Source of the DNA: Spirulina sp.
GTDB lineage: Bacteria > Cyanobacteriota > Cyanobacteriia > Phormidesmidales > Phormidesmidaceae
Direction: 5' to 3'
NCBI GenBank assembly: GCA_044070495.1
Contig: JBIPSI010000019.1
Location: 1 to 64,000, forward strand
Length of the DNA stretch: 64,000 bases
Every line of letters starts with the position of its first letter. The stretch's first letter is position 1. The notes beneath the pieces were generated by a model. That model was not told the DNA's origin. It saw nothing but the letters and a program-made list of their open reading frames with translations, and searched no databases. The translations under genes and the position numbers were made by a program. Of this stretch, positions 15,884 to 44,517 are shown one piece after another.

Positions 15884-16849
15884 GTGTTTACGACCCTCTC
15901 CCCCGCCGCCGCCGTCTTGCCTGGACGTTTAGACCTGTTTGAGGCCATCGAAGCCCTTAAACACGAGCTAAACGCGGTTATTTTGGCCCATTACTACCAG
16001 GATCCTGATATTCAGGATGTAGCGGACTATATTGGTGATTCTCTAGGGCTATCGCGTCAGGCGGCGGCTACGAATGCCGATGTCATCGTGTTTGCCGGGG
16101 TTCACTTTATGGCAGAAACCGCCAAAATTCTCAACCCCACCAAGCAGGTGCTGCTGCCCGACCTGAATGCCGGGTGTTCCCTGGCCGATAGCTGCCCCCC
16201 CGATGCCTTTGCCGCCTTCAAGGCCCAGTATCCGGGGCATTTGGTGATCTCCTATATCAACTGCACGGCCCAAATCAAGGCCATGAGCGACATCATCTGC
16301 ACCAGTTCCAATGCCGTGAAGATTGTCCAGCAAATTCCCGCCGATCAGCCGATTATCTTTGCCCCCGACCAAAACCTAGGGCGCTACGTAATGGAACAAA
16401 CCGGGCGGGATTTGGTGCTGTGGCCGGGAAGCTGCATGGTACACGAAACCTTCTCCGAGAAGAAGCTGGTGCAGTTGCAGATGGAATACCCTGACGCCGA
16501 GGTAATTGCCCATCCCGAATGCGAATCGGCGGTCTTGCGCCACGCCCACTACATTGGCTCCACCACCGCCCTGTTGAAGTATGCCCAGGCCAGCCCCAAA
16601 CAGCAGTTCATTGTGGTCACAGAACCAGGCATTATTCATCAAATGGAGAAGGAAGCTCCCAGTAAAACCTTTATCCCAGCCCCACCAATGGCCTCCTGCG
16701 CCTGCAACGAGTGCCCCCACATGCGGCTGAACACCCTCGAAAAACTCTACCTAGCCATGAAAAATCGCCAGCCCGAAATCACCCTGCCGGAGGATCTCAG
16801 GCTGGCGGCCCTAGCGCCCATGCAGCGCATGTTGGAGATGAGCATCTAG
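15884..16849 (+). CDS. nadA: Quinolinate synthase
   Basis: [42 protein letters not shown]. Confidence 0.97.
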
Positions 16850-16942
16850 GCGCTCTGAACCCAGAAAAGCGCAGGGGCGAAGTTTCCTCGCCCACTCATG
16901 CCGGGGGCCAGCAATCCAGATTTAGCGCCGCCTAGGGACCTC

Positions 16943-17455
16943 CTAGCGACAGGTGCCCCGCCCCCACTGGCCGTCATAGCCAACGGAGACTTGATCACCC
17001 ACTTGGGCCGGATTGGCAGACAGGTGGACTAAGGTGACACTGGCCATCTCCTGCACCGATCCGCGCCAAATCGCTTGCCCCTGGGCATTTTTGCCGTCAT
17101 AGCTGAGGAAGGATTCCGCAAAGACGTCCCCGGTGGCGGGCCGCTTTAGCTCAATGCGCGAAAACCCGGCTGCGCGGGTGAAGTAGACCGTGAAGTCAAT
17201 ATCGTTGACGGTGATCGACCCGGTACAGGTCATTTCCAGGTTGTCCTGGTTGGGTTCTTCAGGTGGGGTGGAGGCCGAACCGGGCACGGGAGTCGCATCT
17301 GGGGTGGCAGTCGCCTCTGGAGTGGCGGTCGCCTCTGGGGTAGGCTCTGGACTAGGGGTCGTCGTGTCTTGGGGTTGGGATCCGCCGTTGCAGGCCACCA
17401 TCCCCAACCCCAACAGCAACGCCGTCCCCAGAGAAATCATCTTTGATGGGATCAC
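16943..17455 (-). CDS. Hypothetical lipoprotein with Pro/Thr-rich linker
   Basis: Lipobox-like LGMVA-C; TPEATA repeats. Confidence 0.75.
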   Translation of the reverse strand: MIPSKMISLGTALLLGLGMVACNGGSQPQDTTTPSPEPTPEATATPEATATPDATPVPGSASTPPEEPNQDNLEMTCTGSITVNDIDFTVYFTRAAGFSRIELKRPATGDVFAESFLSYDGKNAQGQAIWRGSVQEMASVTLVHLSANPAQVGDQVSVGYDGQWGRGTCR

Positions 17456-28330: not shown

Positions 28331-28458
28331 CTGGCTGACAAAAGAGTCTACGTCGGTCGCGAAAACCGCGCCCCTACAGTATTGGTTACACGTAGGGGTC
28401 TGGTCTCCTGACCCTGTGGCAGATCTGGGTTCTCGCAAGTTTTGTCAGTCAACCAAGA
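28331..28458. mobile_element. MITE-like element (128 bp) with imperfect terminal inverted repeats and flanking 13-bp direct repeats
   Basis: TGGCTGACAAAA ... TTTTGTCAGTCA; GAGTGGCGTTACC at 28318-28330 and 28459-28471; internal GTAGGGG/CCCCTAC REP-like pair. Confidence 0.8.
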
Positions 28459-32685: not shown

Positions 32686-34079
32686 TGCAGATTGCCTACG
32701 TTTGTGCCGACTATGGCGTGCCCGTCTTTGGCCGCAAGGGTTGCTCCATCCATGTGCAAGAGGTGATTCGCGCCCTGCTTCAACAAGGCCATCACGTCAC
32801 CCTAATCGCTGCCCGTCTGGGGGGAGATCCGCCCGCCGATTTAGCCCAGGTGCCCGTCCATCGGCTCCCCGCCATCCCCAAGCAAGACCGCGCCCAGCGA
32901 GAACAGGCCGAACTCGCCATCAACCTCAACCTACGCTTTTCCTTGGAAACCGCTGGCCCCTTCGACCTGGTGTATGAGCGCTATTCCCTCTGGAGCTTTG
33001 CGGCGATGGAATACGGGCGAGATCAGGCCATCCCCGCCGTCCTAGAAGTGAACGCCCCGCTGATTGAGGAGCAGGCCCGCTATCGCCAGTTGGTATATCC
33101 CCAAAAGGCCCAGTGGGTGGCCCGACGGGCGTTTTCTGCCGCTGATGCTTTGGTGGCCGTATCCCAAGGCGTGGCCGATTATTTGGCGACCTTTCCTGAA
33201 ACGGAAAACTGTGTGTACGTCATCCCCAACGGCGTCAATGTAGCGCGATTTACCGACCGTTTCCCACGTCCCCACCACCCCGCGTCCCCACCACCCCACA
33301 TTCCCCCCTTCACCGTGGGCTTTGTGGGCACGATGAAAACCTGGCACGGCTTGCCAACCCTGATGGCGGCGTTTCGCAAATTGCATGATGCCTGTCCCCA
33401 GGCGCGGCTGCTGATGGTGGGCGATGGCCCCGCCCGATTAGACTGCGCCGCCGAGATGGAGCAGCATGGACTAGGGGCAGCCGTTCAGTGGACAGGAGCC
33501 GTAGAACCGGAGCAAATCCCCCAATGGCTGGCCCAGATGGATGTGGCCGTGGCCCCCTATCCGCCCCTGGAACAGTTCTACTTTTCGCCCCTCAAGGTGT
33601 ACGAATACATGGCCGCTGGGCTGCCCGTCATCGCCAGCGATATTGGCCAACTGCGTCAGGTGATCACCCCCGGAGAAACCGGACTGCTAGTGCCGCCAGG
33701 AGATGAGGAAGCCCTGGTTCAGGCGCTTTTGCAGTTGCACCGAAACCCGACCTTGCGCCAACAATTGGGACAACAAGCCCAGCGCCAAATCGCCACCCAT
33801 CACACCTGGTTGCAGGTGGTAGACCGCATTTTGAACGTAGCTGGCCCTCACCCCCAGCCCCTCTCCCAAGAAGGAGAGGGGAGCCGGAAGGAGATTTCGT
33901 CTGATGTGAGGTTCGTGGATGGCGAAGTCTCCGCTTGCCCTCACCCCCAGCCCCTCTCCCAGGAGGGAGAGGGGAGCCAGCAAGGGATTGTTTCTGGCTC
34001 TAAGCGCTCTCTTCCAGAAAAAGTCCAACCCCAAGAGAATCCCTCAAAGTCCCTCTCCCACCTTGGGAGAGGGATTTAG
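32685..34079 (+). CDS. Glycosyltransferase family 4 with repeat-derived C-terminal extension
   Basis: YERYSLW, EVNAPL, FVGTMKTWHG, FSPLKVYEYMAAG; start overlaps the upstream stop (TAATG). Confidence 0.92.
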   Translation: MQIAYVCADYGVPVFGRKGCSIHVQEVIRALLQQGHHVTLIAARLGGDPPADLAQVPVHRLPAIPKQDRAQREQAELAINLNLRFSLETAGPFDLVYERYSLWSFAAMEYGRDQAIPAVLEVNAPLIEEQARYRQLVYPQKAQWVARRAFSAADALVAVSQGVADYLATFPETENCVYVIPNGVNVARFTDRFPRPHHPASPPPHIPPFTVGFVGTMKTWHGLPTLMAAFRKLHDACPQARLLMVGDGPARLDCAAEMEQHGLGAAVQWTGAVEPEQIPQWLAQMDVAVAPYPPLEQFYFSPLKVYEYMAAGLPVIASDIGQLRQVITPGETGLLVPPGDEEALVQALLQLHRNPTLRQQLGQQAQRQIATHHTWLQVVDRILNVAGPHPQPLSQEGEGSRKEISSDVRFVDGEVSACPHPQPLSQEGEGSQQGIVSGSKRSLPEKVQPQENPSKSLSHLGRGI

Positions 34080-34131
34080 GGTGAGGGCCAACCCCATCCG
34101 CCAAGCAACCTACCCCCCACTCATCAACCCT

Positions 34132-35979
34132 ATGTCCCGACCCACTCACTTAAAAGACATGGTGCCCAGCCTAGCCGACATGGTGCGGCGGTTTTGGCCC
34201 TACATTCGTCAAGAGCGCAGCCTGGTAACGATGGCCCTGGTGGCCTTGGTGGCCCAGGTGGCGCTGCGGCTGCTGGAACCTTGGCCCATGAAGGTGATTT
34301 TCGACCATGTGATCCCTGTGGGCGGCGCGGCCCCGTCGTCCCAGGGGATTGCAACGCCCTGGGGAGAGCTTTCGACCACCGGGCTGCTGTGGGGTTCGGC
34401 GGCGGCGATGGTGGCCATTGTGGCGGTGCGGGCCATGGCGGAATACTTTAGTACCGTGGGTTTTGCCCTGGCCGGAAGCCGCGTACTAACTCAGGTGCGG
34501 GACGACTTGTATTGCCATTTGCAGCGGTTGTCTCTGCGGTTCCACAACCAGGCCCGCAGCGGCGAACTCACCCTGCGCGTAATCAGCGATGTGGGGATGC
34601 TCAAGGAAGTGGTGGTCACCGCCCTGCTGCCGATGCTGGGCAACACCCTGATTTTGCTGGGCATGGTGGGGCTGATGCTGTGGCTGCATTTGGAACTCAC
34701 CCTGCTAGCCCTGGCGACGATTCCCCTGTTTTCCTTGACGACGGTACGCATGAGCCACCGGATTCGGGAGGTTTCGCGGCAACAGCGGAGGCGGGAGGGT
34801 TCCATGGCCTCGGCGGCAGCGGAATCCATGGCGGCGATTAAGGTGGTGAAGGCGCTATCCTTAGAACCTGCCTTTGCCCAGGTGTTCACCCAGCAAAGTA
34901 AAAAGACCCTCAAGGATGGCGTCAAGGCCAAACGGCTGGCGGCCAAACTGGAGCGCTCCGTAGACCTGATCATCGCCCTCGCCACCGCCCTAGTGCTCGG
35001 TCGGGGGGCGCACCTCGTCACCCACGGAGCCCTGACCCCAGGGGATTTGCTGGTGTTCTTGGCCTACCTCAAAAACGCCTTTCGGCCCGTGCGCGACTTC
35101 GCCAAATACACCGCCCGCTTGGCCAAGGCCTCCGCCGCCGGGGAACGCATTTTGAACCTGCTGGACGAAACCCCCGACATTGTGGATGCCCCCCACGCCG
35201 TCGCCGCGTCCCCCTTCCAAGGGCAGATCGAACTCCGCCACGTCTCCTTTGCCTACGAACCCGGACAGCCGATTCTCAACAACATTTCCCTCCAGGTCGC
35301 CCCAGGGCAACAGGTCGCCATCGTGGGGCCATCGGGCAGTGGCAAATCCACCCTGGCCAGCCTCATCTTGCGCCTCTACGACCCCAACCAAGGCCAAATC
35401 TGCATCGACGGCACCGACATCCGCGACTACACCCAAGACTCCCTCCGCGCCCAAATTAGCGTGGTGCTGCAAGATAGCCTGCTGTTCGCCGCCACCATCG
35501 CCGAAAACATCGCCTACGGCAACCCCCAGGCCACCGCCGCCGAAATTCGCCACGCCGCCCAACTGGCCAACGCCCACGAATTCATCGAACGCCTGCCCCA
35601 GGGCTACGAAACCCCCGTCGGAGAACGCGGCGTCACCCTCTCCGGCGGCCAACGCCAACGCCTCGCCATCGCCCGCGCCGCCGTACGCCAGTCCCCCATT
35701 CTGCTCCTGGATGAACCCACCACCGGACTCGACAAAGACAACGAACGCACCGTCATTGAAGCCCTGCAACGGGTGAGCCAAGCCAGCACCACCCTCACCA
35801 TCACCCACGACCTCACCCTCGCCGCCCAGGCCGACCACATCATCTACATGGAACGCGGCACCATCCTGGAACAGGGCACCCACACCGACCTCCTCCACCG
35901 CCAAGGCCCCTACGCCACCCTCTACCGCCTCCAACTCGCCCAGGGTGGAGAAACTTCCCTGCTGCTGCCGAGTGCGTAA
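34132..35979 (+). CDS. ABC exporter, fused permease/ATP-binding (MsbA-like); likely start 34132
   Basis: TM domain, GPSGSGKST, LSGGQRQR, LLLDEPT. Confidence 0.95.
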   Translation: MSRPTHLKDMVPSLADMVRRFWPYIRQERSLVTMALVALVAQVALRLLEPWPMKVIFDHVIPVGGAAPSSQGIATPWGELSTTGLLWGSAAAMVAIVAVRAMAEYFSTVGFALAGSRVLTQVRDDLYCHLQRLSLRFHNQARSGELTLRVISDVGMLKEVVVTALLPMLGNTLILLGMVGLMLWLHLELTLLALATIPLFSLTTVRMSHRIREVSRQQRRREGSMASAAAESMAAIKVVKALSLEPAFAQVFTQQSKKTLKDGVKAKRLAAKLERSVDLIIALATALVLGRGAHLVTHGALTPGDLLVFLAYLKNAFRPVRDFAKYTARLAKASAAGERILNLLDETPDIVDAPHAVAASPFQGQIELRHVSFAYEPGQPILNNISLQVAPGQQVAIVGPSGSGKSTLASLILRLYDPNQGQICIDGTDIRDYTQDSLRAQISVVLQDSLLFAATIAENIAYGNPQATAAEIRHAAQLANAHEFIERLPQGYETPVGERGVTLSGGQRQRLAIARAAVRQSPILLLDEPTTGLDKDNERTVIEALQRVSQASTTLTITHDLTLAAQADHIIYMERGTILEQGTHTDLLHRQGPYATLYRLQLAQGGETSLLLPSA

Positions 35980-36026
35980 ATGGGCAAAACAAAACGCTAT
36001 CCGTTCAGCAACAGTAGAATGGATTA

Positions 36027-36123
36027 GTAGGGTGGGCACTGCCCACCATCAAATTTAAGCTGCCTCGGTTGACCCGATTTTTCTTAGTTTGTCGAGTTAC
36101 ATTGAGCGATTTTGCGTTCTTCT
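36027..36123. repeat. Truncated copy of the 133-bp REP doublet (left REP plus spacer)
   Basis: GTAGGGTGGGCACTGCCCACCATCAAATTTAAGCTG... aligns with 39025-39157 and 40061-40193. Confidence 0.85.
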
Positions 36124-36183
36124 GAATTTCAACTGATAGTTTTCTAACTTGTCAAGGAGGAAATTATTCGATGGATTCCCTAG
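36124..36183 (+). pseudogene. xisH: 3' remnant of xisH
   Basis: EFQLIVF*LVKEEIIRWIP* resembles the XisH C-terminus and overlaps the xisI start; contains an internal stop. Confidence 0.7.
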
Positions 36184-36506
36184 ATCAGTGGCGCACGATT
36201 TTAGAAGCAACACTGCAAACCTACGCAGAGCTGCCCTATACCCTGGGCGATGTATCAACCTATGTTGTCGTCAGTCGTGATAGCAATCACTTTTTTCTGA
36301 TGCATGAGGGTTGGCAAGGAAATCGGAGAATCCATGGAATCGTTGTCCATGCTGAAATTCGCGATAAAAAAATCTGGATTCACTACGATGGCATTGAGGG
36401 CAGCATCACTGAAGAACTCGTTGCAGCAGGCATTGCTAAAGAAAACATCGTGCTAGCCTTTCATCCACCCTATATTCGAGAGCATACAGGTTATGCCGTC
36501 GCCTAA
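36171..36506 (+). CDS. xisI: XisI family protein
   Basis: GW...RIHG, KIWIHYDGIE, ELVAAGI...IVLAFHPP...TGYAVA. Confidence 0.93.
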   Translation: MDSLDQWRTILEATLQTYAELPYTLGDVSTYVVVSRDSNHFFLMHEGWQGNRRIHGIVVHAEIRDKKIWIHYDGIEGSITEELVAAGIAKENIVLAFHPPYIREHTGYAVA

Positions 36507-36518
36507 AGAAGATAATTG

Positions 36519-36611
36519 CTACCGTGGTTGAAGCCAATGGTGGTGATCCTGAGTAAGGCGGGCATCCTGCTGCACCCACCAAACCCAGATGTGGGTATCG
36601 AGCACAATCAT
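36519..36611 (-). pseudogene. 5' fragment of a PIN/VapC toxin gene
   Basis: MIVLDTHIWVWWVQQDARLTQDHHHWLQPR*; ATGA overlap with the upstream antitoxin-like gene. Confidence 0.8.
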
Positions 36612-36850
36612 TGCAAAGCATCCCAGTCTTCTAGGGGAATCGCAGGAGCGAAAGGATCGTCATAGCGGTAAGGCTGTTGGCCTGAAGCAAGCGCTGTATC
36701 TAAATCGGGCGTAGGCGCTGGGGTCGTTGCTAGGAGTCGTTGCCCCTGGGGGTACTTTGTCTTGAGAAAGCAGAGAAAGTCCAATACCTCAGTAATCAGA
36801 GGATCAGACACATTATCGAGTTCTTGAATCAGCAGGTCTTTGGGTGTCAT
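36608..36850 (-). CDS. DUF2281-like putative antitoxin
   Basis: EVLDFLCFLKTK and DDPFAP..EDW motifs; GGAGGGA RBS. Confidence 0.75.
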   Translation of the reverse strand: MTPKDLLIQELDNVSDPLITEVLDFLCFLKTKYPQGQRLLATTPAPTPDLDTALASGQQPYRYDDPFAPAIPLEDWDALQ

Positions 36851-36885
36851 GGCATCCCTCCCTCAAAACCAAAATCTCATTACCG

Positions 36886-37134
36886 TTACTCCACCATGAC
36901 ATACCGAGTTAGCACCCGCATGATTTCGTGACTGCGCTCGGTGGGTTGGGGGATGCTCCATTCGCGGACTTCGGCAAAGCCGAGGCGATAGAGTTCGTGG
37001 ATGATGCGTTCTACACCGTGGGCGCTGCCGATCACCAAAATGCGAATCACCTCTCGCCCTGGGGCGTTGGCGGGTGCAAGGGTGACTTGCAAGGCTGGGT
37101 CAGCCAAGGTTGACGGGATAAAGGCTTGCGGCAT
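36886..37134 (-). CDS. Uncharacterised small cyanobacterial protein
   Basis: AAGGAG RBS; REVIRILVIGS..GV...IHELYRLGFAEVREWS. Confidence 0.75.
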   Translation of the reverse strand: MPQAFIPSTLADPALQVTLAPANAPGREVIRILVIGSAHGVERIIHELYRLGFAEVREWSIPQPTERSHEIMRVLTRYVMVE

Positions 37135-37146
37135 GGAAGGCTCCTT

Positions 37147-37205
37147 TGTTGCTTAATGGATCACAACATAGCACCAATTTCAGAATTGTGATCCACTAAG
37201 CAACA
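37147..37205. promoter_or_regulatory. 20-bp inverted repeat (19/20 match, 19-bp spacer) between divergent genes; putative operator
   Basis: TGTTGCTTAATGGATCACAA (37147-37166) / TTGTGATCCACTAAGCAACA (37186-37205). Confidence 0.65.
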
Positions 37206-37240
37206 TTTACGTTCTCGTGACTCTCTGCCAAAGTTGGAGC

Positions 37241-37489
37241 ATGGGTAGAGCAAGCCACGCACTAAAACAGGTGTTAGACACCTACGGCATTAGCCAAAAC
37301 CAGCTTGCCGGAGCTATGGGTGTAGAGCGGGGTAGCGTTTCCCGTTGGTACCACGACAAACGCGATCCGACGGCAGAGACAGTGGTGGAGATTGTGGAGG
37401 CCCTAAAAGCACTTAATTTTCATGCTGCTGAGGAGTTTGTAACTTTGTATTTAAGCAATATACTGACGAAAGATCAGCATTTAATTTAA
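37241..37489 (+). CDS. XRE-family helix-turn-helix regulator
   Basis: LKQVLDTYGISQNQLAGAMGVERGSVSRWY...DP. Confidence 0.88.
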   Translation: MGRASHALKQVLDTYGISQNQLAGAMGVERGSVSRWYHDKRDPTAETVVEIVEALKALNFHAAEEFVTLYLSNILTKDQHLI

Positions 37490-37593
37490 TTGACATTCTT
37501 TCAGGATGCTAGCATAGCTCATCGTTAAATTCGTCATCCATCATGATGCAGAATTCAAAAAACACACCAATAATTTCATAAAAGATATTAAGA

Positions 37594-38193
37594 ATGGACT
37601 GTATTACAATATTTATTGCTCAGGCATCATCGCCGCCGCCAATACCGATAACGAACAGTGGCCAACAAGCACTTGGACTAGACTGGCAAACTATTATCAT
37701 CGCTGTTTTGACGGGTACTTCAGCAGGCCTTCTATCTGCACTACTAACCCCTTGGTCTCAACTAGCTATTGACATAAAAAAGGATGAACGCAAAAGCATA
37801 CGTATTACTGTTGAGCATCTACAAGATTTGATTGACACTCAAATTGAAATACGTTATTTAATGGAGGCTATGTGCTTTCAGGAATTTATCCTGCGCCTAA
37901 ATTCATCTATTAAACGTGAGCTATTCAGACTTATAGATGAGTATGAAGAACAATTAAAAAATCTTCTAGATGCAGAAACTGAAGTGAGGCGTAAGGCAAA
38001 ACAGGATCTAGAAGACGAGAAGAATTTTATTGAGAAAGAAACTCATTTGCCAGTAGACGATTCTGCTCAACGTGGCTTACTCTCTGAGCGTGTAAGCGAT
38101 ATTATTTTTGAAAAAAAACAAGAGTTAGCAAAACCTCTTCGTGTTTTCCTAGCCAAGCAAATAGCTATACTTAAGAAAAAATGGAGCTTGTGA
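37594..38193 (+). CDS. AT-rich hypothetical protein, one N-terminal TM helix + helical domain
   Basis: 199-aa ORF; hydrophobic WQTIIIAVLTGTSAGLLSALL. Confidence 0.7.
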   Translation: MDCITIFIAQASSPPPIPITNSGQQALGLDWQTIIIAVLTGTSAGLLSALLTPWSQLAIDIKKDERKSIRITVEHLQDLIDTQIEIRYLMEAMCFQEFILRLNSSIKRELFRLIDEYEEQLKNLLDAETEVRRKAKQDLEDEKNFIEKETHLPVDDSAQRGLLSERVSDIIFEKKQELAKPLRVFLAKQIAILKKKWSL

Positions 38194-38202
38194 CGACAAA
38201 CT

Positions 38203-38955
38203 ATGAGTAAAGCGACGCATGCTTTGATCGTTGCCACTTTGTCAGCACCAAATACTACCAGTTCACAGACACCTTCATCACCTCAAATATCGAATCAATT
38301 GGATATGGATATCGCGGTAGTCATAGCTGCCCTCATAACTGCTGCTATTTCCTTGGCAACTACACTAATTAATTTGCGAATCCAACGAAGAATAGAGCAA
38401 AGCCGTCAAGAGCTAGAGAGACAACTTCAACATGAGAAGCGCAACCATGAGATAGCAATTGAAAATTTAAGAGCAGATAACGAACATAAGCTTAAAAATC
38501 AGCCTCGTCGTCTTGAGTTTATCGGCTTCTGGAGAAAGATGCTCTACAAAGACGCGACGACTTATGAAGATATACTAAAGGAAGAGTCATATAAAACCTT
38601 AGAGAAGTTTATCGCTTCTGAAGTGTGTGCTATGTTGCAAAAAGAAATTGAAGAGTCGAAAGAGAAACTAGAAAAACTCAATAAATCTCTTGAATGGAAG
38701 GAGAAAGTTTATAACGGAAAATGGTGGGATGAAGACGAAGCTGAGTATCAACTACAACAAGATCTTGTCTACTATTCAAAATCTTGGATGGAGTATGAAG
38801 GTGATTATGTTGGCATTTTAGAAGCACTAGAAAGTATGGCAGAAACTAGGCATGAAATTTATCAGATAAAACAGGATTTAACCACGCTCATGAAGACTCA
38901 ACTCATAGAAGAACTGCGAAGACTTGAAACGGAAGAATGGAAGTTGCTGAGCTAA
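38203..38955 (+). CDS. AT-rich hypothetical protein, one TM helix + coiled coil
   Basis: 250-aa ORF 9 bp after the previous gene; IAVVIAALITAAISLATTLI. Confidence 0.7.
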   Translation: MSKATHALIVATLSAPNTTSSQTPSSPQISNQLDMDIAVVIAALITAAISLATTLINLRIQRRIEQSRQELERQLQHEKRNHEIAIENLRADNEHKLKNQPRRLEFIGFWRKMLYKDATTYEDILKEESYKTLEKFIASEVCAMLQKEIEESKEKLEKLNKSLEWKEKVYNGKWWDEDEAEYQLQQDLVYYSKSWMEYEGDYVGILEALESMAETRHEIYQIKQDLTTLMKTQLIEELRRLETEEWKLLS

Positions 38956-39024
38956 ATGTGAACTGATTATCAATTGTTGTAGTAGAGTAAGACGCACAAC
39001 ATCCGTCATTCAGTAAGTAAGTAA

Positions 39025-39157
39025 GTACGGTGGGCACTGCCCACCATCAAATTTAAGCTGCCCCAGTTGGCTCAATCTTTCCTGAAACTAAGCCAGTTCA
39101 GCCGGGTTATCTTGGGCGATTTTGCGTTATTCCTGTGGTGGGCACTGCCCACCCTAC
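39025..39157. repeat. 133-bp inverted REP doublet (REPIN-like)
   Basis: GTACGGTGGGCACTGCCCACC ... GGTGGGCACTGCCCACCCTAC with a conserved spacer. Confidence 0.88.
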
Positions 39158-39246
39158 TGTGGATGAAGCCAATGGTGGTAATCCTGGGTAAGGCGGGTGT
39201 CCTGCTGTACTCAGCCAACCTAGATGTGGGGATCGAGCACAATCAT
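39154..39246 (-). pseudogene. Second, more decayed copy of the VapC 5' fragment
   Basis: MIVLDPHI*VG*VQQDTRLTQDYHHWLHPQ*; colinear with 36519-36611. Confidence 0.75.
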
Positions 39247-39346
39247 GAGTCATCTAATCACAGTATTTGGTGACGGATGCCTGCTTGGCCCAAGCAAAAG
39301 CCCGTGGTCGCTATAATAGGCGCAAGTCTCTACATTGCCTGCTGCC

Positions 39347-39559
39347 ATGATCTCCCAACAACTCGAAGAGCGCTCTCAGCCCCTCGAAGCACGGGTTGCG
39401 GCTTTGGAAACAGAACTAACGCAGCTTAAACAGGTGTTAGCTGCCCTTCTGCCAAAGCCCACCCCCTGGTGGTCAAAGATTGCGGGTAGCTTTGAAGACG
39501 ATCCGACCTTCGATGCCGCGATGAACTTTGGCCAAGACTGGCGCAAGACCGCCGATTAG
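39347..39559 (+). CDS. Putative antitoxin
   Basis: LEARVAALETEL...PWWSKIAGSFEDDPTFD...GQDWR; directly upstream of a PIN gene; TATAAT at 39312-39317. Confidence 0.78.
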   Translation: MISQQLEERSQPLEARVAALETELTQLKQVLAALLPKPTPWWSKIAGSFEDDPTFDAAMNFGQDWRKTAD

Positions 39560-39575
39560 GTCGCTTGCCGCCATT

Positions 39576-39998
39576 ATGTACATCCTCGATACCGATCACC
39601 TCAGCTTCATTCAGCGCAAGAACCAGGCAGGGCAACGCATTTTACAAAAACTTGCTGCCATTGAAGAGGCTGAAATAGCCGTCACCATCATCACCTACGA
39701 AGAGCAGCTTAGAGGGCGGCTTCGGATTGTGGCTGGCGCAAAAACCGTTGAAGAGCAAGTTTCTGCCTATTACTGGCTGCACCAACTTGCTTTGGACTAC
39801 ACCTTAATTACCCTTGTGCCCTTCGACGCCAGTGCCGCCCAAATTTATGAGCGGCTGCGTAAAGCCTATCCTCGCCTCGGCACCATGGATCTCAAAATTG
39901 CAGCGATTGCGATTTCACGTCAGGCAACGCTTCTGACCCACAATATCTCAGACTTTCAGCAGATAGCCGATCTATTGGTCGAAGATTGGTCAATTTAA
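39576..39998 (+). CDS. VapC/PIN toxin
   Basis: YILDTDHLS, ITYEEQ, MDLKIAAIA, LLTHNISDF, EDW. Confidence 0.9.
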   Translation: MYILDTDHLSFIQRKNQAGQRILQKLAAIEEAEIAVTIITYEEQLRGRLRIVAGAKTVEEQVSAYYWLHQLALDYTLITLVPFDASAAQIYERLRKAYPRLGTMDLKIAAIAISRQATLLTHNISDFQQIADLLVEDWSI

Positions 39999-40060
39999 TC
40001 ACCCAACTTAACAGCAAATAGAGAGCAATGCTTACCCTTAAAATTAAGCGCCCCCAGTAA

Positions 40061-40193
40061 GTAGGGTGGGCACTGCCCACCATTAAATTTAAGCTGTCTC
40101 AGTTAGCCCAATCTTTCCTAAAACTAAGCTAGTTCAGCCGATTGTATTGGGGTGATTGTACATTCTTCCTGTGGTGGGCAGTGCCCACCCTAC
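40061..40193. repeat. 133-bp inverted REP doublet (REPIN-like)
   Basis: GTAGGGTGGGCACTGCCCACC ... GGTGGGCAGTGCCCACCCTAC; spacer homologous to 39025-39157. Confidence 0.9.
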
Positions 40194-40244
40194 CGTGGCT
40201 GCGATCACTGACTACCCCAGTGACCTAGCCCTCCTCGTCATTAC

Positions 40245-40667
40245 TTAGGAAAGAATCTTCAAAAACTGTTCGGGATTCACGATGGGTATTGCAAAAGTAG
40301 CTTTTAGGCTGAGCAGATCGTGATCGCCCGTAACCAAATAATCTGTCCGACCCACCACTGCCAACTGCAAAAACGGCACATCCAAAGGATCGCGACAGTT
40401 TGGAACCATTGGCAGTTCTGGCGGCATTGGTACAACCTCGCAGTAGGGCAAATAATCTGCCAAGAGATCATCCTGCTCAATTCTAGTCAGCCTGAATTTT
40501 GGGTAGGCCAAAACTCGAATTAACTCAGTTGCTGTTACCCGCGATACCAAAGGCGTCAAGCGCTGAGCTTGCCAAGCTTCGCGCAACGTAGCCATTGTCC
40601 CTTGCCTGAACACCAATGCAGAAACCAACACATTGGTATCTAGCACCGCCCGAAGCACCTGGGTCAT
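40245..40667 (-). CDS. PIN-family toxin
   Basis: VLDTNVLVSA, CRDPLDVPFL, LVTGDHDLL. Confidence 0.9.
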   Translation of the reverse strand: MTQVLRAVLDTNVLVSALVFRQGTMATLREAWQAQRLTPLVSRVTATELIRVLAYPKFRLTRIEQDDLLADYLPYCEVVPMPPELPMVPNCRDPLDVPFLQLAVVGRTDYLVTGDHDLLSLKATFAIPIVNPEQFLKILS

Positions 40668-40900
40668 GATTGAGGGGTAGAACCGTCACGAGCCCAGGTT
40701 ACAGCATCCGCCACATCTTGCTCTGTAATGTTCAGCTCGGCCAGCTTTTCTCTAACCGCATTAGACCGCTGAACTTTAACCGGGGTAAGAATTACTTGCC
40801 CGCCCTCAACCGTGATCTCAAAGTACTCCACAGGGCCAAGCGCTTCAGTAACACTCAACGGTAGGGTGATTCGATTTTGATCCGTAAGTTTTGTAAGCAC
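40664..40900 (-). CDS. AbrB/MazE-type antitoxin
   Basis: KLTDQNRITLP...VILTP; ATGA overlap with the PIN gene. Confidence 0.85.
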   Translation of the reverse strand: MLTKLTDQNRITLPLSVTEALGPVEYFEITVEGGQVILTPVKVQRSNAVREKLAELNITEQDVADAVTWARDGSTPQS

Positions 40901-41101
40901 GTCACGAATACTCAGTCAGGCTATATGTCTAGCTTAGCGTAGCGAAAGAACTGTTACGGCCACATCGGAGCGAAACCCAGTCATTCTCGTGCCAGCGGGT
41001 CGCAAATGAACTGTGGGCCAAGGTGGACTTGAGGTTGCCCTAGGGCGATCGCTCATACTCTTCACTGGTAGGCAGTGCCTCCCCCTACCGTGGCTTAAGT
41101 A

Positions 41102-41902
41102 TTAGCGCAGATCCTGTACGGGTGATATATCTCTGTGTGTGCTGGTCTTGCGCTTCTCTGCATACAGCGCTTCGTCAGCACGGGCCAAGGCCTGATCAAA
41201 GGATTCTTTTCGGTGCAATAGAACCATGCCGATGCTGGTGGAAACCAAAATGGGTTCGTCACTATCCCTATGGTTTAAGGTGAAGTGGCTGCACTGGGCG
41301 CGGATTTCCTGTTGAATTTGCTCGATTTTGGTAGGGGATCCGGTAATCAGGAACGCAAACTCGTCACCGCCCAGACGACCGACGAGGCCCTCGTTCAGGA
41401 TCCCGTGCAATTGATGCACGACTGTACACAGAGCCTCATCACCGAGGCGGTGGCCGAAGCGGTCGTTGAGGGTCTTAAAGCAATCCAGATCGACCATGCC
41501 CACCAGCCCAGAATCGGCATAACGCCAAGTGTCGAGGTGGTTGGCCGCCTCGGTGAAGAAACCGCGTCGGTTGGCCGCGCCGGTGAGGGGATCGGTGGTA
41601 GAAAGCCTGAGTACAGCTAGATAGGCCGTATCTAGGCGCACCAGCAGACTTACGATCAGCCAAACACTAACGGGGGCTACCAATAACGGTACCGCCACGG
41701 CGATGGCCAGCGAGACCGCTAGGGTCACCCTTGGCGAATAATCCACGGACAATTGTGGAACGACCAGAGTGAGGGTCGCTAGGACAGACAAGCTAATCGA
41801 GCCAGCCGTGATCAGTGCAATGACACCTCGCGCACCAACCCGACGATAGAGCCCCATAATCGCCTGTTCCATCGGATTCAGGTTAATGTGCGGGTCATCC
41901 AT
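41102..41902 (-). CDS. Membrane-anchored GGDEF diguanylate cyclase (start uncertain)
   Basis: DPLTGAANRR, DLDCFKTLNDRFGH..GD, RLGGDEF, ADEALY; two TM helices. Confidence 0.9.
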   Translation of the reverse strand: MDDPHINLNPMEQAIMGLYRRVGARGVIALITAGSISLSVLATLTLVVPQLSVDYSPRVTLAVSLAIAVAVPLLVAPVSVWLIVSLLVRLDTAYLAVLRLSTTDPLTGAANRRGFFTEAANHLDTWRYADSGLVGMVDLDCFKTLNDRFGHRLGDEALCTVVHQLHGILNEGLVGRLGGDEFAFLITGSPTKIEQIQQEIRAQCSHFTLNHRDSDEPILVSTSIGMVLLHRKESFDQALARADEALYAEKRKTSTHRDISPVQDLR

Positions 41903-42155
41903 GAACCAACCATACCTACATGCCAAGTAGAAATCGTGCCCGTAACCGCTACTCACCTCTTCATTGTTAGTCTACCCAGACGACGTCCTAATCATCTGCG
42001 GCCAACCTTTGGGGATGGACTCCCAGATCTAAAAGACGATACCCCGGCATTGCAACGGCTCTTTCGTTGCTTAGGGCACCCCCAATCGGCAAAAATCCGT
42101 CACCATAGAAACAGTGCCAGTAAAACTGCATTTTTGTACTGTTTGAGAATCAGCG

Positions 42156-44162
42156 ATGGGCGACTTCAACATTCAGGCCCCCTTTGAACCGATGGGCGAT
42201 CAGCCCAAGGCCATTGCCGGACTCACCCAATTTTTGAAGGACAACACCCGCTACCAAACCCTGTTGGGGGCCACGGGTACGGGCAAAACCCACACCATCG
42301 CCCGCGTCATCGACAACATCGGCAAGCCCACCCTGGTGCTGGCCCACAACAAAACCCTGGCGGCCCAGCTTTGCAACGAACTGCGGGAGTTTTTCCCCGA
42401 CAACGCCGTGGAGTACTTCATCAGCTACTACGACTACTACCAGCCGGAAGCCTACATCCCGGTGACGGACACCTACATCGCCAAAACCGCCTCGATTAAC
42501 GAAGAAATCGACATGCTGCGGCACTCCGCCACCCGGTCGCTGTTCGAGCGGCGGGACGTGATTGTGGTGGCCTCCATTAGCTGCATCTACGGTTTGGGGA
42601 TGCCTGCGGAATACCTGAAAGCCTCGATTCCGTTGCAGGTGGGGATGGAGGTGAATCAGCGCCAGGTGTTGCGAGATTTGGCCCAAATTCAGTACGAACG
42701 CAATGACCTGGATCTCGGTCGAGGGCGGTTTCGGGTGAAGGGCGACGTGCTAGAAATTGGCCCCGCCTACGAAGACCGCATCATTCGGGTAGAGTTCTTT
42801 GGCGACGAAATCGATGCCATCCGCTACGTCGATCCCATCACCGGGGCCACCCTACAAAGCATGGAGGGACTGAGCATCTACCCCGCCAAGCACTTTGTTA
42901 CCCCCGAAGAACGGGTCGAAGAAGCCACCAAGGCCATCCAAGAAGAACTGGCGGCACGGCTGGAAGCCCTGGAAAAAGAGGGCAAGTTACTGGAAGCCCA
43001 GCGCCTAGAACAGCGCACCCGCTACGACCTAGAGATGATCCGCGAGGTGGGCTACTGCAACGGCGTGGAAAACTACGCCCGCCACCTAGCCGGACGCCCC
43101 GCCGGATCGCCACCGGAATGTTTGCTGGATTACTTCCCCAAGGACTGGCTACTGGTGATCGACGAATCCCACGTCACCATTCCCCAAATTCGCGGCATGT
43201 ACAACGGCGACCGCAGCCGCAAAATGGTGCTGATCGACCACGGCTTCCGTCTGCCCAGCGCCGCCGACAACCGCCCCCTCAAGGCCGAAGAATTTTGGGA
43301 GAAAGTCAACCAGTGCATCTTTGTCTCCGCCACACCGGGGGATTGGGAGATGGAGATCTCCGAGGGCAAAGTGGTGGAACAGATCATTCGCCCCACCGGA
43401 GTGCTCGACCCAGAATTGTTTGTGCGCCCCACCGAAGGCCAAATCGACGACCTGCTGGGGGAGGTGCGGGATCGTGCCCAGCGCCAGGAGCGCGTCTTGG
43501 TCACCACCCTGACCAAGCGCATGGCCGAAGACCTGACCGAATACCTAGAAGAACATGGCGTGCGGGTGCGTTATTTACATTCGGAAATCCACTCCATCGA
43601 GCGGATCGAAATCATCCAAGACCTGCGCGACGGCAACTACGATGTGCTGGTGGGGGTGAACCTGCTGCGGGAGGGGCTAGACTTGCCCGAAGTCTCCCTA
43701 GTAGCGATTTTGGACGCCGACAAAGAGGGCTTTTTGCGGGCCGAGCGCTCCCTGATCCAAACCATCGGACGGGCGGCGCGCCATGTCCGGGGGCAGGCCA
43801 TCCTCTACGCCGACAATTTAACCGACAGCATGGCTAGGGCCATCGATGAAACCGAACGCCGCCGCGCCATCCAAACCGCCTACAACCAGGCCAACGGCAT
43901 CACCCCCCAACCCATCGAACGGCGCAATAAAGGCAACTCCATCCTCTCCTTCCTCGATATTTCCCGCCGCCTCAATGCCCAGGAGCTTGAGGAAGCCTAC
44001 GAACACAAGGAAGACCTGCCCCTGGAGGACATCCCCGAACTGATCGGCCAACTGGAAAAACAAATGAAAGAAGCCGCCAAAAACCTCGAATTTGAAGAGG
44101 CCGCCAAGTACCGCGACCGGATCAAAACCCTGAGGGATCAACTACTTGGAAAACGGGCTTAG
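42156..44162 (+). CDS. uvrB: Excinuclease ABC subunit B
   Basis: [34 protein letters not shown]-terminal motif. Confidence 0.99.
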
Positions 44163-44236
44163 TGGAACCCGAGTTCGGGTTAATCTCAATAGCCTTATGC
44201 CCTGGCAGCCCTCACCTTAAATCCCTCCCCCATGGG

Positions 44237-44404
44237 GCTACCGCTTATGCATAGCTTGTTCTCATGCCGTCATGCTTGTGGGATCCCCCTAAATCCCCCT
44301 TGGAAAGGGGGACGTTGACTCCGATTCCCCCCTTTTTTAAGGGGGGCTAGGGGGGATCAACCCTAGGAACCTAGCGGAATAGAAACTTGTGTATAAACAG
44401 TAGC
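44237..44404. mobile_element. MITE (168 bp) with 10-bp target duplication, nested inside another dispersed repeat
   Basis: TIRs GCTACCGCTTATGCATAG / CTTGTGTATAAACAGTAGC; CCCCCATGGG at 44227-44236 and 44405-44414. Confidence 0.82.
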
Positions 44405-44517
44405 CCCCCATGGGAGAGGGGCTGGGGATGTAGTTCACTTCCTGTAAGGGGACGCTATAGCGCAAGTCAGAAGCGAGTCTCTAAAGATTTAATTCCTTGG
44501 CTTATCCCGAACTCTGG

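Follow-up and report, generated by a model that had tools for sequence, protein, structure and literature searches.

Direct-repeat REP doublets between toxin-antitoxin and accessory modules in a cyanobacterial genus

Repetitive extragenic palindromic (REP) sequences and their paired, hairpin-forming relatives (REPINs) are commonly viewed as selfish or structural intergenic repeats of old, stable DNA. The systems that they form with REP-associated tyrosine transposases (RAYTs), including GTAG-tagged REPs and head-to-head dimers, have been described by Bertels & Rainey (2011), Di Nocera et al. (2013) and Ton-Hoang et al. (2012), and for comparison we drew on the relevant portions of PMC3733652, PMC3184786, PMC3390384 and PMC3333891. 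Head-to-head dimers typically have conserved spacers, according to the section of PMC3733652 that deals with them. For Escherichia coli TnpAREP, the cleavage sites given in PMC3333891 lie on either side of an inverted REP, at TGCC|TGAT and within C|TAC, and the part of that paper on site requirements names the C|T alone as essential. Toxin-antitoxin (TA) and accessory modules bounded by short sites and shuffled between replicons are known from Acinetobacter plasmids as pdif (Xer) modules, as outlined in parts of PMC13141974 and PMC6449649. Here we analyze a stretch of 64,000 nucleotides from Spirulina sp. (GenBank assembly GCA_044070495.1, contig JBIPSI010000019.1, positions 1 to 64,000), referred to below as the window, in which an earlier reading of the sequence alone had proposed a REP-punctuated array of TA and accessory modules. 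This array is present. An element of ~150 nt is present four times on the plus strand between 36021 and 41095, always in the same orientation and twice as a partial copy, and its copies set apart xisI, a DUF2281 gene with a VapC stump, a pair of an 82-aa gene and an Xre-type helix-turn-helix (HTH) gene with two AT-rich open reading frames (ORFs), an antitoxin+VapC pair and an AbrB+PIN pair. The 5.1-kb array is bracketed by an ABC transporter gene and a GGDEF gene, and its G+C content is 36-54%, that of the genome being 56.7% and that of the ABC gene 65%.

Four observations carry our interpretation: the architecture of the array, its recurrence at several hot spots of the genus, the joint travel of cassettes and the repeat, which we call the doublet, and the enrichment of gain and loss boundaries at doublet edges. 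Our best reading is that the doublet, derived from a REPIN, serves cassette shuffling as a portable boundary and as a site of recombination, via homologous recombination or RAYT.

The REP core has the form GGTGGGCA[C/G]TGCCCACC with a GTAG foot, that is, a short GC-rich palindrome with a terminal GTAG. Cores lie at 36027-36048, 39025-39046, 39137-39158, 40061-40082 and 40172-40193, with a degenerate one at 41066-41084. In the full doublet two REPs are inverted, feet outward, around a spacer of 89 nt, and the order is (A)GTAAGTAG, GGTGGGCAcTGCCCACC, the spacer, GGTGGGCAgTGCCCACC and then CTACCGTGGCT. The sequence-only reading had delimited this repeat at 133 bp; the repeat is real, but the conserved element extends further, from (A)GTAAGTAG through CTACCGTGGCT(GCGATCGC). 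Similarly, the REP placed at 41067 is degenerate, as claimed, but does not stand alone, being part of the right third of a doublet (copy D). The claim that the doublet spacers are homologous was borne out, copies B (39025-39158) and C (40061-40193) being 84-86% identical across 133-146 nt, spacer included; copy A (36027-36122) comprises the left REP and the greater part of the spacer. A BLAST search of the whole genome limited spacer homology to three loci with eight full or partial copies, so that the spacer, for which locus specificity had been raised as a check, is not scattered genome-wide. The second locus (contig C8, 16131-17738) has three copies between icd and the gene for a PEP-utilising enzyme, which set apart an IF5A-like ORF and a DUF4926 gene; the third (contig C29, 19687-19898) lies in the pilD/modA spacer and has no cassette.

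The junction CTAC[C/T]GTGG, reported to recur four times, does so at 36519, 39154, 40190 and 41085 and at no other site in the window; the whole genome has 85 occurrences on both strands, and ~0.04 are expected per 5 kb of one strand. Among 113 genomic REP-CTAC copies, the continuation CGTGG or TGTGG is confined to the doublet family, the generic flank being GG. The plain REP is dispersed on many contigs, with 67 exact cores, 132 at ≤2 mismatches and 198 at ≤3; of these 198, the foot is present on the left only in 77, on the right only in 57, on both sides in 5 and on neither in 59. The doublet itself, found at three loci here and with one to eight matches per genus genome, is not a replicating, many-copy population. 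As a sequence, the doublet is a GTAG REP head-to-head dimer and REPIN-like: it has four of the five marks of REP/REPIN membership that we considered (GTAG-type core, inverted pair, high-copy REP and a RAYT flanked by the same REP, described below) and lacks the fifth, the abundant population.

The pattern extends across the genus. With doublet C as the query (E≤1e-8 inside the genus, E≤1e-6 outside it), doublets were found in 29 of 53 genus genomes (that of the window, G000, counted), with one to eight matches each at 70-100% identity, and in none of 120 genomes that represent 18 further genera of the order. We fetched 20 further loci (L numbers; G numbers denote the other genomes), mapped doublets by profile, and called ORFs crudely, 212 of which were scanned against Pfam. 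Profile matches were obtained in 26 of 27 scanned stretches, giving 50 copies (copy D of the window counted), 27 of them full length. They form 15 arrays of two to four copies plus 11 single copies, with 39 of the 50 in arrays. Neighbouring copies point the same way in all 24 pairs; in two pairs they touch, and in the remaining 22 they are 312-2897 bp apart. The most frequent hot spot lies between NMT1_2/ABC_tran and miaB-like/HPP genes, others between lepA and a GT2 gene, at icd, and between GT1 and ABC genes (the window and G050). Besides antitoxin+VapC and AbrB+PIN_3, the cassettes comprise DUF6883+DUF4926, NTase+HEPN, ParE, RelE, HNH, Mrr-like, an IIGP-type GTPase, DUF4238, UPF0175+DUF3368 and a DUF2281-like 83-aa gene. 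The cargo is of TA or defence types, mostly behind the 82-aa/HTH pair.

This distribution bears on the alternative that doublets are passive bystanders, namely REPIN relics or hairpins of 3' untranslated regions persisting in dispensable TA-island DNA that turns over by illegitimate recombination or homology of the flanking core. The rarity of the spacer-bearing doublet, its concentration in arrays and the uniform orientation of all adjacent pairs argue against it. So does a comparison with Pseudomonas, where the accessory regions treated in the relevant part of PMC3390384 are REP deserts, the opposite pattern.

Comparison with relatives supports the claim that the interval is a gene-accretion hot spot, since the closest relatives have neither its content nor its ABC and GGDEF flanks. 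On the right side uvrB is conserved (98% identical in protein in G005 and G019), and DNA homology with these genomes starts only at window 42077. The ABC gene has no close orthologue beside uvrB in relatives, the best match (61% identity) being on other contigs, and of 40 relatives a single one has the GGDEF gene at E 1e-40, on another contig. The modules recur elsewhere with the doublet, as had been proposed. Window 39066-39958, with part of a doublet, the VapC stump, the antitoxin and VapC, is 93% identical to DNA beside icd on contig C181 of G005, in an array that also holds another doublet, DUF6883/DUF4926 and an AT-rich DUF4041/T5orf172 gene. Antitoxin+VapC-like DNA is also present in arrays of G018, G062, G019 and G002, the order in G019 being REP-CTACCGTGG, antitoxin, VapC and icd at 74% identity. 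Window 40211-40954 (PIN_3/AbrB) is 84% identical to DNA between a glycosyltransferase gene and lepA on contig C99 of G017, where the cassette is followed by a partial doublet and then a RAYT gene; this cassette also occurs in G054. Cassettes in new contexts keep a doublet attached, a further point against passive bystanders.

The 93-nt VapC N-terminal stump of the window is duplicated along with the doublet. The stop codon of its first copy is the TAG of the REP foot, and the arrangement of the second is repeated in G005 (L004 8704-8795). In the icd array of G005, VapC ends differently, DNA homology stopping at window 39958, 40 nt before the window stop codon. Directly behind this cassette lies the AT-rich gene mentioned above (L004 6610-7986; 458 aa, DUF4041 plus T5orf172/MUG113), placed like the AT-rich ORFs of the window behind their HTH gene.

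We next consider where blocks of homology end. High-scoring segment pairs of ≥150 nt, with doublet-only ones dropped, numbered 479, and clustering of their ends within 15 nt per locus gave 361 unique ends. Of these, 55 lie ≤25 nt from a doublet edge compared with 13.2 expected from coverage (~4-fold), an excess that weighs against the bystander alternative, and 16 lie deeper within a doublet. The antitoxin/VapC cassette begins 0-6 nt past the right end of the doublet in L041 (3583/3589), L051 (7611/7616) and L009 (725/722), and the PIN_3/AbrB cassette of the window begins 10 nt past doublet C (40201/40211). An empty site was found in metagenome run X1, whose contig 5 (315 nt) joins 40058-40200 (91% identical) to 41083-41197 (94%). 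The 15 letters at the joint are one more REP, and the PIN_3/AbrB cassette is absent between two REP-CTACCGTGGCT units. In the same run, contig 6 does carry this stretch (40203-41083), differing from the window at 8 of 881 positions (99% identity). Many metagenome contig ends diverge from the window exactly at the element edges (40056-40061, 40193, 40198, 40206 and 41095), and the DUF2281 region is partly deleted in metagenome relatives, with joints 36631-36876 and 36675-36885. These contigs indicate that such arrangements exist in other strains; the route by which they arose is beyond their reach.

The proposal that modules are gained or swapped at REP boundaries therefore stands in part, on the enrichment of ends and the X1 joint. 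A number of observations weigh against it, several of which suit passive bystanders. Most block ends (290 of 361) lie away from doublets, at gene borders and at the HTH 3' end. The nominal binomial P for the enrichment, 5e-19, is overstated, related genomes and repeated cassettes having been counted as independent, and the empty site comes from a relative only 91-94% identical, not from the window strain. The 82-aa/HTH module has no REP at 36887 or ~37442; its counterpart beside the OCP gene on contig C202 of G005 (window 36738-37453, 93% identical) has no REP match within the 4 kb examined, the HTH side lying ~200 nt from the contig start, and replacement of the variable ORF uses the HTH gene, not a REP, as the left arm. 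Partial doublets end at scattered positions, left-truncated copies beginning at profile positions 10-62. Finally, some doublets stand in plain intergenic DNA without a cassette (pilD/modA and a phycobilisome-linker locus), and REPs in general are intergenic fillers in the accounts given in parts of PMC3390384 and PMC3733652. Taking both sides together, we regard the bystander alternative as distinctly unlikely.

The pilD/modA doublet, also present in G067 (L052 2316-2528), consists of one full copy and an extra left half, exactly at a synteny breakpoint. The pilD-modA adjacency exists only in G000 and G067, and 0 of 28 other fetched pilD loci have modA or a doublet beside pilD, so that an empty-site comparison for this insertion found no syntenic partner among these 28.

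The array is thus built on a genus-specific element of ~150 bp, composed of a head-to-head GTAG-REP dimer, a conserved spacer and the right tail CTACCGTGGCT. Its copies are direct repeats, and each of the gaps of 0.3-2.9 kb between them contains one small module, be it a putative type II TA pair, xisI or a variable ORF led by the 82-aa/Xre-HTH pair. On our preferred reading, because doublets are direct repeats, a module with one doublet could loop out and re-enter elsewhere, in a Campbell-type event that may target any other doublet of the same genome or, after DNA uptake, a doublet of another genome. Homologous recombination between doublets 75-90% identical, together with illegitimate deletions, would account for most events. 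On the head side the HTH gene may serve as a homology arm in the role that the doublet has at the other end, and some events may be initiated or made more precise by RAYT nicking at C|T next to REP hairpins. That host recombination at doublets, with occasional help from RAYT, drives the turnover of the array is the explanation to which we lean, at somewhat better than even chances.

An enzyme acting in trans had been postulated for these sites. A RAYT flanked by GTAGGGTGGGCACTGCCCACC does exist in the genome, but only as a pseudogene. A search for PF01797 gave two places, on contigs C3 and C16. At ~236140-237010 of contig C3 (L089 1222-2090) lies a RAYT (NCBIfam REP_Tyr_transpos 151.6 bits, cut-off 80) with cgtagGGTGGGCACTGCCCACC on its left and a degenerate REP-CTAC on its right, the same REP as in the doublet. 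Compared with the intact G021 orthologue it is broken twice, by a 157-nt insertion bounded by the 9-bp direct repeat CTGGTTACC and by a perfect, frame-shifting 47-bp tandem duplication. The insertion has its own GTAGGTTGGGTG...CACCCAACCTAC inverted repeat and looks like a miniature inverted-repeat transposable element. The match on contig C16 belongs to another Y1 transposase, interrupted by a gene inserted into it, and no intact RAYT was found in this assembly (97% complete). In G005 the RAYT match is no more than 42 residues long, and in G019 it contains an in-frame TAG; judged by these lesions, RAYT appears to have been lost in this lineage. With its RAYT a pseudogene, the array here is probably now changed by host recombination only. 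Array content differs between G000 and G005 although the cognate RAYT is broken in G000, an observation that counts for host recombination.

Across the genus there are at least two RAYT subfamilies and up to seven matches per genome (REP_Tyr_transpos 151.6 and 163 bits). Seven fetched loci (L078, L079, L081, L082, L083, L086 and L089) have the G000 type with precisely this REP at its flanks. The other type (≥79% identical to that of G017) lies ≤~1 kb from a doublet in 5 of 15 loci (L061, L064, L066, L069 and L075), and a fragment of it abuts a doublet in G023. An origin of the doublet as an internal-deletion derivative of the G000-type REPtron was considered and is not obvious, profile matches there reaching positions 1-40 only (REP plus ~12 nt).

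These adjacencies speak for an alternative in which mobility is driven by RAYT, an HUH transposase that would cut single-stranded DNA (ssDNA) at C|T on both sides of REP hairpins and move cassette and REP as ssDNA circles, as IS200/IS605 elements do when they carry passenger genes. RAYT was found in 24 of 28 doublet-positive and 12 of 24 doublet-negative genomes, which are related and not independent; G062, with six doublet matches, and G050 have no RAYT match at E 1e-10. Some junctions are also hairpin-precise. In copy A, the junction ...GTTCTTC|TGAATTTC places the xisH side where the right REP hairpin would be, and the 396-bp xisH'-xisI segment sits between ...GTTCTTC and CTACCGTGG. Alignment with the xisH-xisI loci of G004, G048 and G012 starts the xisH 3'-end homology at ~36125, and the left junction falls within a CCTG common to xisH genes and the doublet. 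At the donor side, relatives are 72-81% identical and their flanks unalignable past the gene, and only this left CCTG microhomology is readable. In the contig C8 copy at 16131-16241 the right hairpin alone is gone (...CATTCT|CTACCGTGGCT); a deletion between the CTAC repeats found on either side of the REP in sister copies explains this. The breakpoints of these two copies, TTC(C)|TG or CTAC and |CTAC, resemble the E. coli TnpAREP sites CC|TG and C|TAC in the cleavage data of PMC3333891, and both ends of the X1 empty site lie ≤2 nt from REP-unit boundaries. The hairpin junctions fit the C|T rule of TnpAREP and, equally well, microhomology-mediated deletion over motifs of 2-4 nt. Considering also that most breakpoints lie away from REPs, and that the cognate RAYT is doubly broken here and reduced or interrupted in G005 and G019, we consider turnover driven by RAYT unlikely. 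A contribution of RAYT, as suggested by adjacency in some genomes and by hairpin-precise junctions, is plausible, and is unneeded to explain the data.

The scattered ends of the other partial copies look like ordinary deletion. Several right-truncated doublets, including partial copies in L041, L046 and L051, stop in a spacer palindrome, GGGGCGATCGCCCC, that contains the highly iterated palindrome HIP1 (for example, window 40146-40160), and a second HIP1 (GCGATCGC) lies in the right tail (GCTGCGATCGC). Deletions may end preferentially at HIP1 sites.

The spacer is kept across species, in many copies better than the right REP, and its conservation would be compatible with a role in protein binding or as a promoter or terminator. 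A functional cis-element, in which spacer and hairpins form a terminator, insulator or outward promoter and are carried along for that reason, would be compatible with our preferred reading of the doublet as a recombination site. In 10 arrays the stop codon of the variable ORF is followed by the doublet at a distance of 0-90 nt, and at the left end of doublet B the sequence (AGTA)n GTAG gives stop codons in three frames. Folded as ssDNA, doublet C reached -34.4 kcal/mol (z -7.05) and doublet B -25.2 kcal/mol (z -2.6), the GC-rich REP arms pairing stably and the spacer only weakly. However, RNAalifold on 26 doublet copies gave a consensus of only -4.06 kcal/mol with almost no covariation, and Rfam had no family for the doublet, the best match scoring 32 bits against a gathering score of 94. 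We discarded a conserved RNA element on these grounds, and regard a cis-regulatory function as the main reason for the pattern as very unlikely.

Genes were assigned by Pfam scan, with NCBIfam and PADLOC as further libraries. Small antitoxin genes abut PIN toxin genes in the manner of VapBC at 39335-39559 plus 39576-39998 and, with a 4-nt overlap, in the PIN_3 cassette, and both pairs are putative type II TA modules; the AbrB assignment of the second antitoxin is weak (NCBIfam E 0.0017). A recurring head has the order 82-aa gene (leftward), Xre-HTH gene (rightward), a variable ORF of 150-530 aa or none, and doublet. It is present in the window and in L008, L043, L044, L045, L047, L049, L050, L051, L053, L054 and L058. 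Next to the HTH gene, ORF calling recovered the 82-aa gene in the window, L045, L047, L050, L053 and L058, and DNA of the pair was also matched in L049, L051 and L054. Homology between heads always ends 12-18% short of the end of the HTH gene (window ~37439-37457), and this last ~12-18% varies together with the downstream gene. The 82-aa protein has 107 homologues, all uncharacterised and with cyanobacterial source names. Some public clusters of this 82-84-aa family are auto-named 'peptide ABC transporter substrate-binding protein', almost certainly a misnomer for 82-residue proteins that lack such a domain.

The variable ORFs are mutually unrelated and mostly family-less. Those of the window had no match in Pfam, NCBIfam or PADLOC, and PADLOC gave none for 6 of 8 variable ORFs of other arrays. 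Four metagenome runs left the AT-rich ORFs of the window uncovered at 90% likeness, gaps that carry no meaning; no sequencing run contained more than 15% of the sequence words. The slot between HTH gene and doublet contains about ten unrelated, mostly unannotated genes, which are candidate new toxins or defence effectors of cyanobacteria. On contig C8, an AT-rich ORF of 180 aa (16496-17038; L040 400-939, minus strand) lies between two doublets adjoining icd. Its product contains a KPGKHGSSK motif and resembles IF5A in its N-terminal domain (Pfam IF5A-like_N 1.8e-7), which makes it an unusual passenger for an accessory slot in a cyanobacterium.

The array had also been likened to an integron with a different site and without a recombinase. 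The likeness holds for the architecture, with co-oriented sites and TA cassettes, and may or may not extend to the mechanism. The absence of a recombinase is true of the locus; elsewhere the genome has, besides the broken REP-flanked RAYT, an IntI-family gene (TIGR02249, 466.7 bits, cut-off 265) at 368-1309 of contig C33. This gene, the one full-length IntI-family match of the genome, is interrupted by an in-frame TGA, and contig C19, which carries the array, has no IntI-family match. N-terminal IntI fragments lie at other contig ends (contig C60, 371-671, and both ends of contig C28; L134-L140), and four direct repeats of GGGATCTTAGGTGGAAA stand in front of the gene on contigs C33 and C60; gene and repeats may be a multi-copy element that breaks the assembly. 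The presence of this gene, with the co-oriented sites and the TA cassettes, is what could recommend the array as an integron remnant, a cluster of attC sites lacking integron integrases (CALIN) whose repeats are attC sites for it. The doublet, however, shows no apparent attC R/L box pattern, and its sites are true GTAG REPs for which a cognate RAYT exists. A crude attC scan (RYYYAAC-N40-130-GTTRRRY) gave 0 matches in 35901-41200, a weak result with ~0.6 expected. We consider an integron remnant extremely improbable.

Table 1. Features of the array and its flanks in the window.
Feature	Position	Strand	Evidence or remark
ABC transporter gene (TM + ATPase), left flank	33919..35979	+	Pfam ABC_membrane 1e-38, ABC_tran 1.5e-37
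Doublet A: left REP and spacer, right REP hairpin replaced by xisI segment	36021..36121	+	Profile positions 12-124 of 170, E 2.3e-16; repeat families D2, D6
xisH 3' stump and intact xisI (36171-36506)	36123..36518	+	Pfam XisI 4.5e-35; occupies expected site of doublet A right REP hairpin
CTACCGTGG tail and VapC N-terminal stump copy 1, 31 codons	36519..36611	-	D3 repeat; 87% identical to 39154-39246
DUF2281-like antitoxin gene, orphaned partner of VapC stump	36608..36850	-	Pfam DUF2281 6.2e-5, 24 bits, below 26.5 cut-off
Conserved 82-aa protein gene, divergent partner of HTH gene	36886..37134	-	No Pfam, NCBIfam or PADLOC match
Xre-type HTH gene heading variable ORFs	37217..37489	+	Pfam HTH_3 2.6e-8
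Two AT-rich ORFs (199 and 250 aa), variable-ORF slot from HTH gene to doublet	37594..38955	+	GC 36-41%
Doublet B, full, (AGTA)n in front	39015..39173	+	Profile E 1e-42
CTACTGTGG tail and VapC N-terminal stump copy 2	39154..39246	-	87% identical to copy 1
74-aa antitoxin and VapC (PIN) cassette	39335..39998	+	Pfam PIN 1.1e-8; NCBIfam VapC models below cut-off
Doublet C, full	40054..40210	+	Profile E 2.3e-51
AbrB-like antitoxin (40664-40900) and PIN_3 toxin (40245-40667) cassette	40245..40900	-	Pfam PIN_3 7e-20; TIGR00305 above cut-off
Doublet D, right third: distal spacer with HIP1, degenerate REP, CTACCGTGGCT	41032..41095	+	Profile positions 96-157, E 2.3e-10
GGDEF gene, right flank, itself accessory	41102..41956	-	Pfam GGDEF 3e-33
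uvrB, first conserved gene on right side	42156..44162	+	G005/G019 synteny begins at 42077

The window also has repeats of other families. Units of 50 nt at 33842-33892 and 33937-33992, in the overlapping ends of a glycosyltransferase ORF and the ABC ORF, code for PHPQPLSQEGEGS-like peptide repeats; these units and the sequence at 28332-28455 are two more repeat families with many matches in G005 and G019. Just 3' of uvrB (44208-44430) lies a repeat of ~200 nt with dozens of copies in G005/G019 that are 73-94% identical, a family distinct from the doublet and far more abundant.

A bolder interpretation is that a REPIN-RAYT system has come to serve as a platform that captures genes as integrons do, in which an 82-aa/Xre-HTH head, a slot, REPIN-derived sites and an HUH transposase cutting ssDNA at C|T would insert and excise TA and defence cassettes. 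We think this improbable; if true, it would be a second, independent invention of cassette arrays, with ssDNA hairpin sites like attC and a different enzyme class.

Compared with known systems, the locus shares with REP/REPIN-RAYT systems a GC-rich, GTAG-footed palindrome of 17 nt that numbers over 100 per genome, the inverted pair with feet outward and conserved spacer, and a RAYT gene flanked by the same REP. It differs from REPINs, which form populations of tens to hundreds scattered through core intergenic DNA, in that the doublet is low-copy (eight full or partial copies in three loci), has the asymmetric conserved tail CTACCGTGGCT(GCGATCGC), and forms direct repeats between accessory cassettes. 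A full-text literature search, subscription-only titles lying outside it, found no published REP- or REPIN-bounded cassette arrays. With integron arrays and CALINs the array has in common co-oriented imperfect palindromes of ~60-150 bp between single small cassettes and frequent TA cargo and, as in CALINs, no recombinase beside it. Unlike in integrons, the sites are REPs rather than attC, the cassettes have their own promoters and both orientations, there is no attI/Pc platform but an 82-aa/HTH pair at one end, and the IntI-family gene is unlinked and interrupted. The Xer sites of pdif modules are reported to be 28 bp long and to alternate in orientation. The present array resembles those modules in its discrete accessory and TA modules between putative recombination sites that an enzyme encoded elsewhere would serve, and differs in that its sites are 150-bp REP dimers, all direct, chromosomal and restricted to one cyanobacterial genus. 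We describe the array as one that, by analogy, would work like integron/CALIN arrays and pdif modules and that belongs to neither.

P2/P4 hot spots and Neisseria minimal mobile elements carry variable defence genes between conserved flanks. Like these, the array has conserved arms, on the left the HTH gene up to ~85% of its length and on the right the doublet, around a slot that different genomes fill with unrelated genes; its right arm is a mobile repeat and not a core or phage gene, and the identical slot structure occurs at several chromosomal sites, unlike in those systems. The REPIN-like lineage described here does the opposite of what the REP deserts reported for Pseudomonas would suggest: it is rare and genus-conserved, and at several hot spots its direct repeats alternate with TA and defence cassettes. 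The array may thus offer a concrete, testable case in which a repeat lends portable homology, or a site of recombination, to the shuffling of cassettes in a setting that is neither an integron nor an Xer module.

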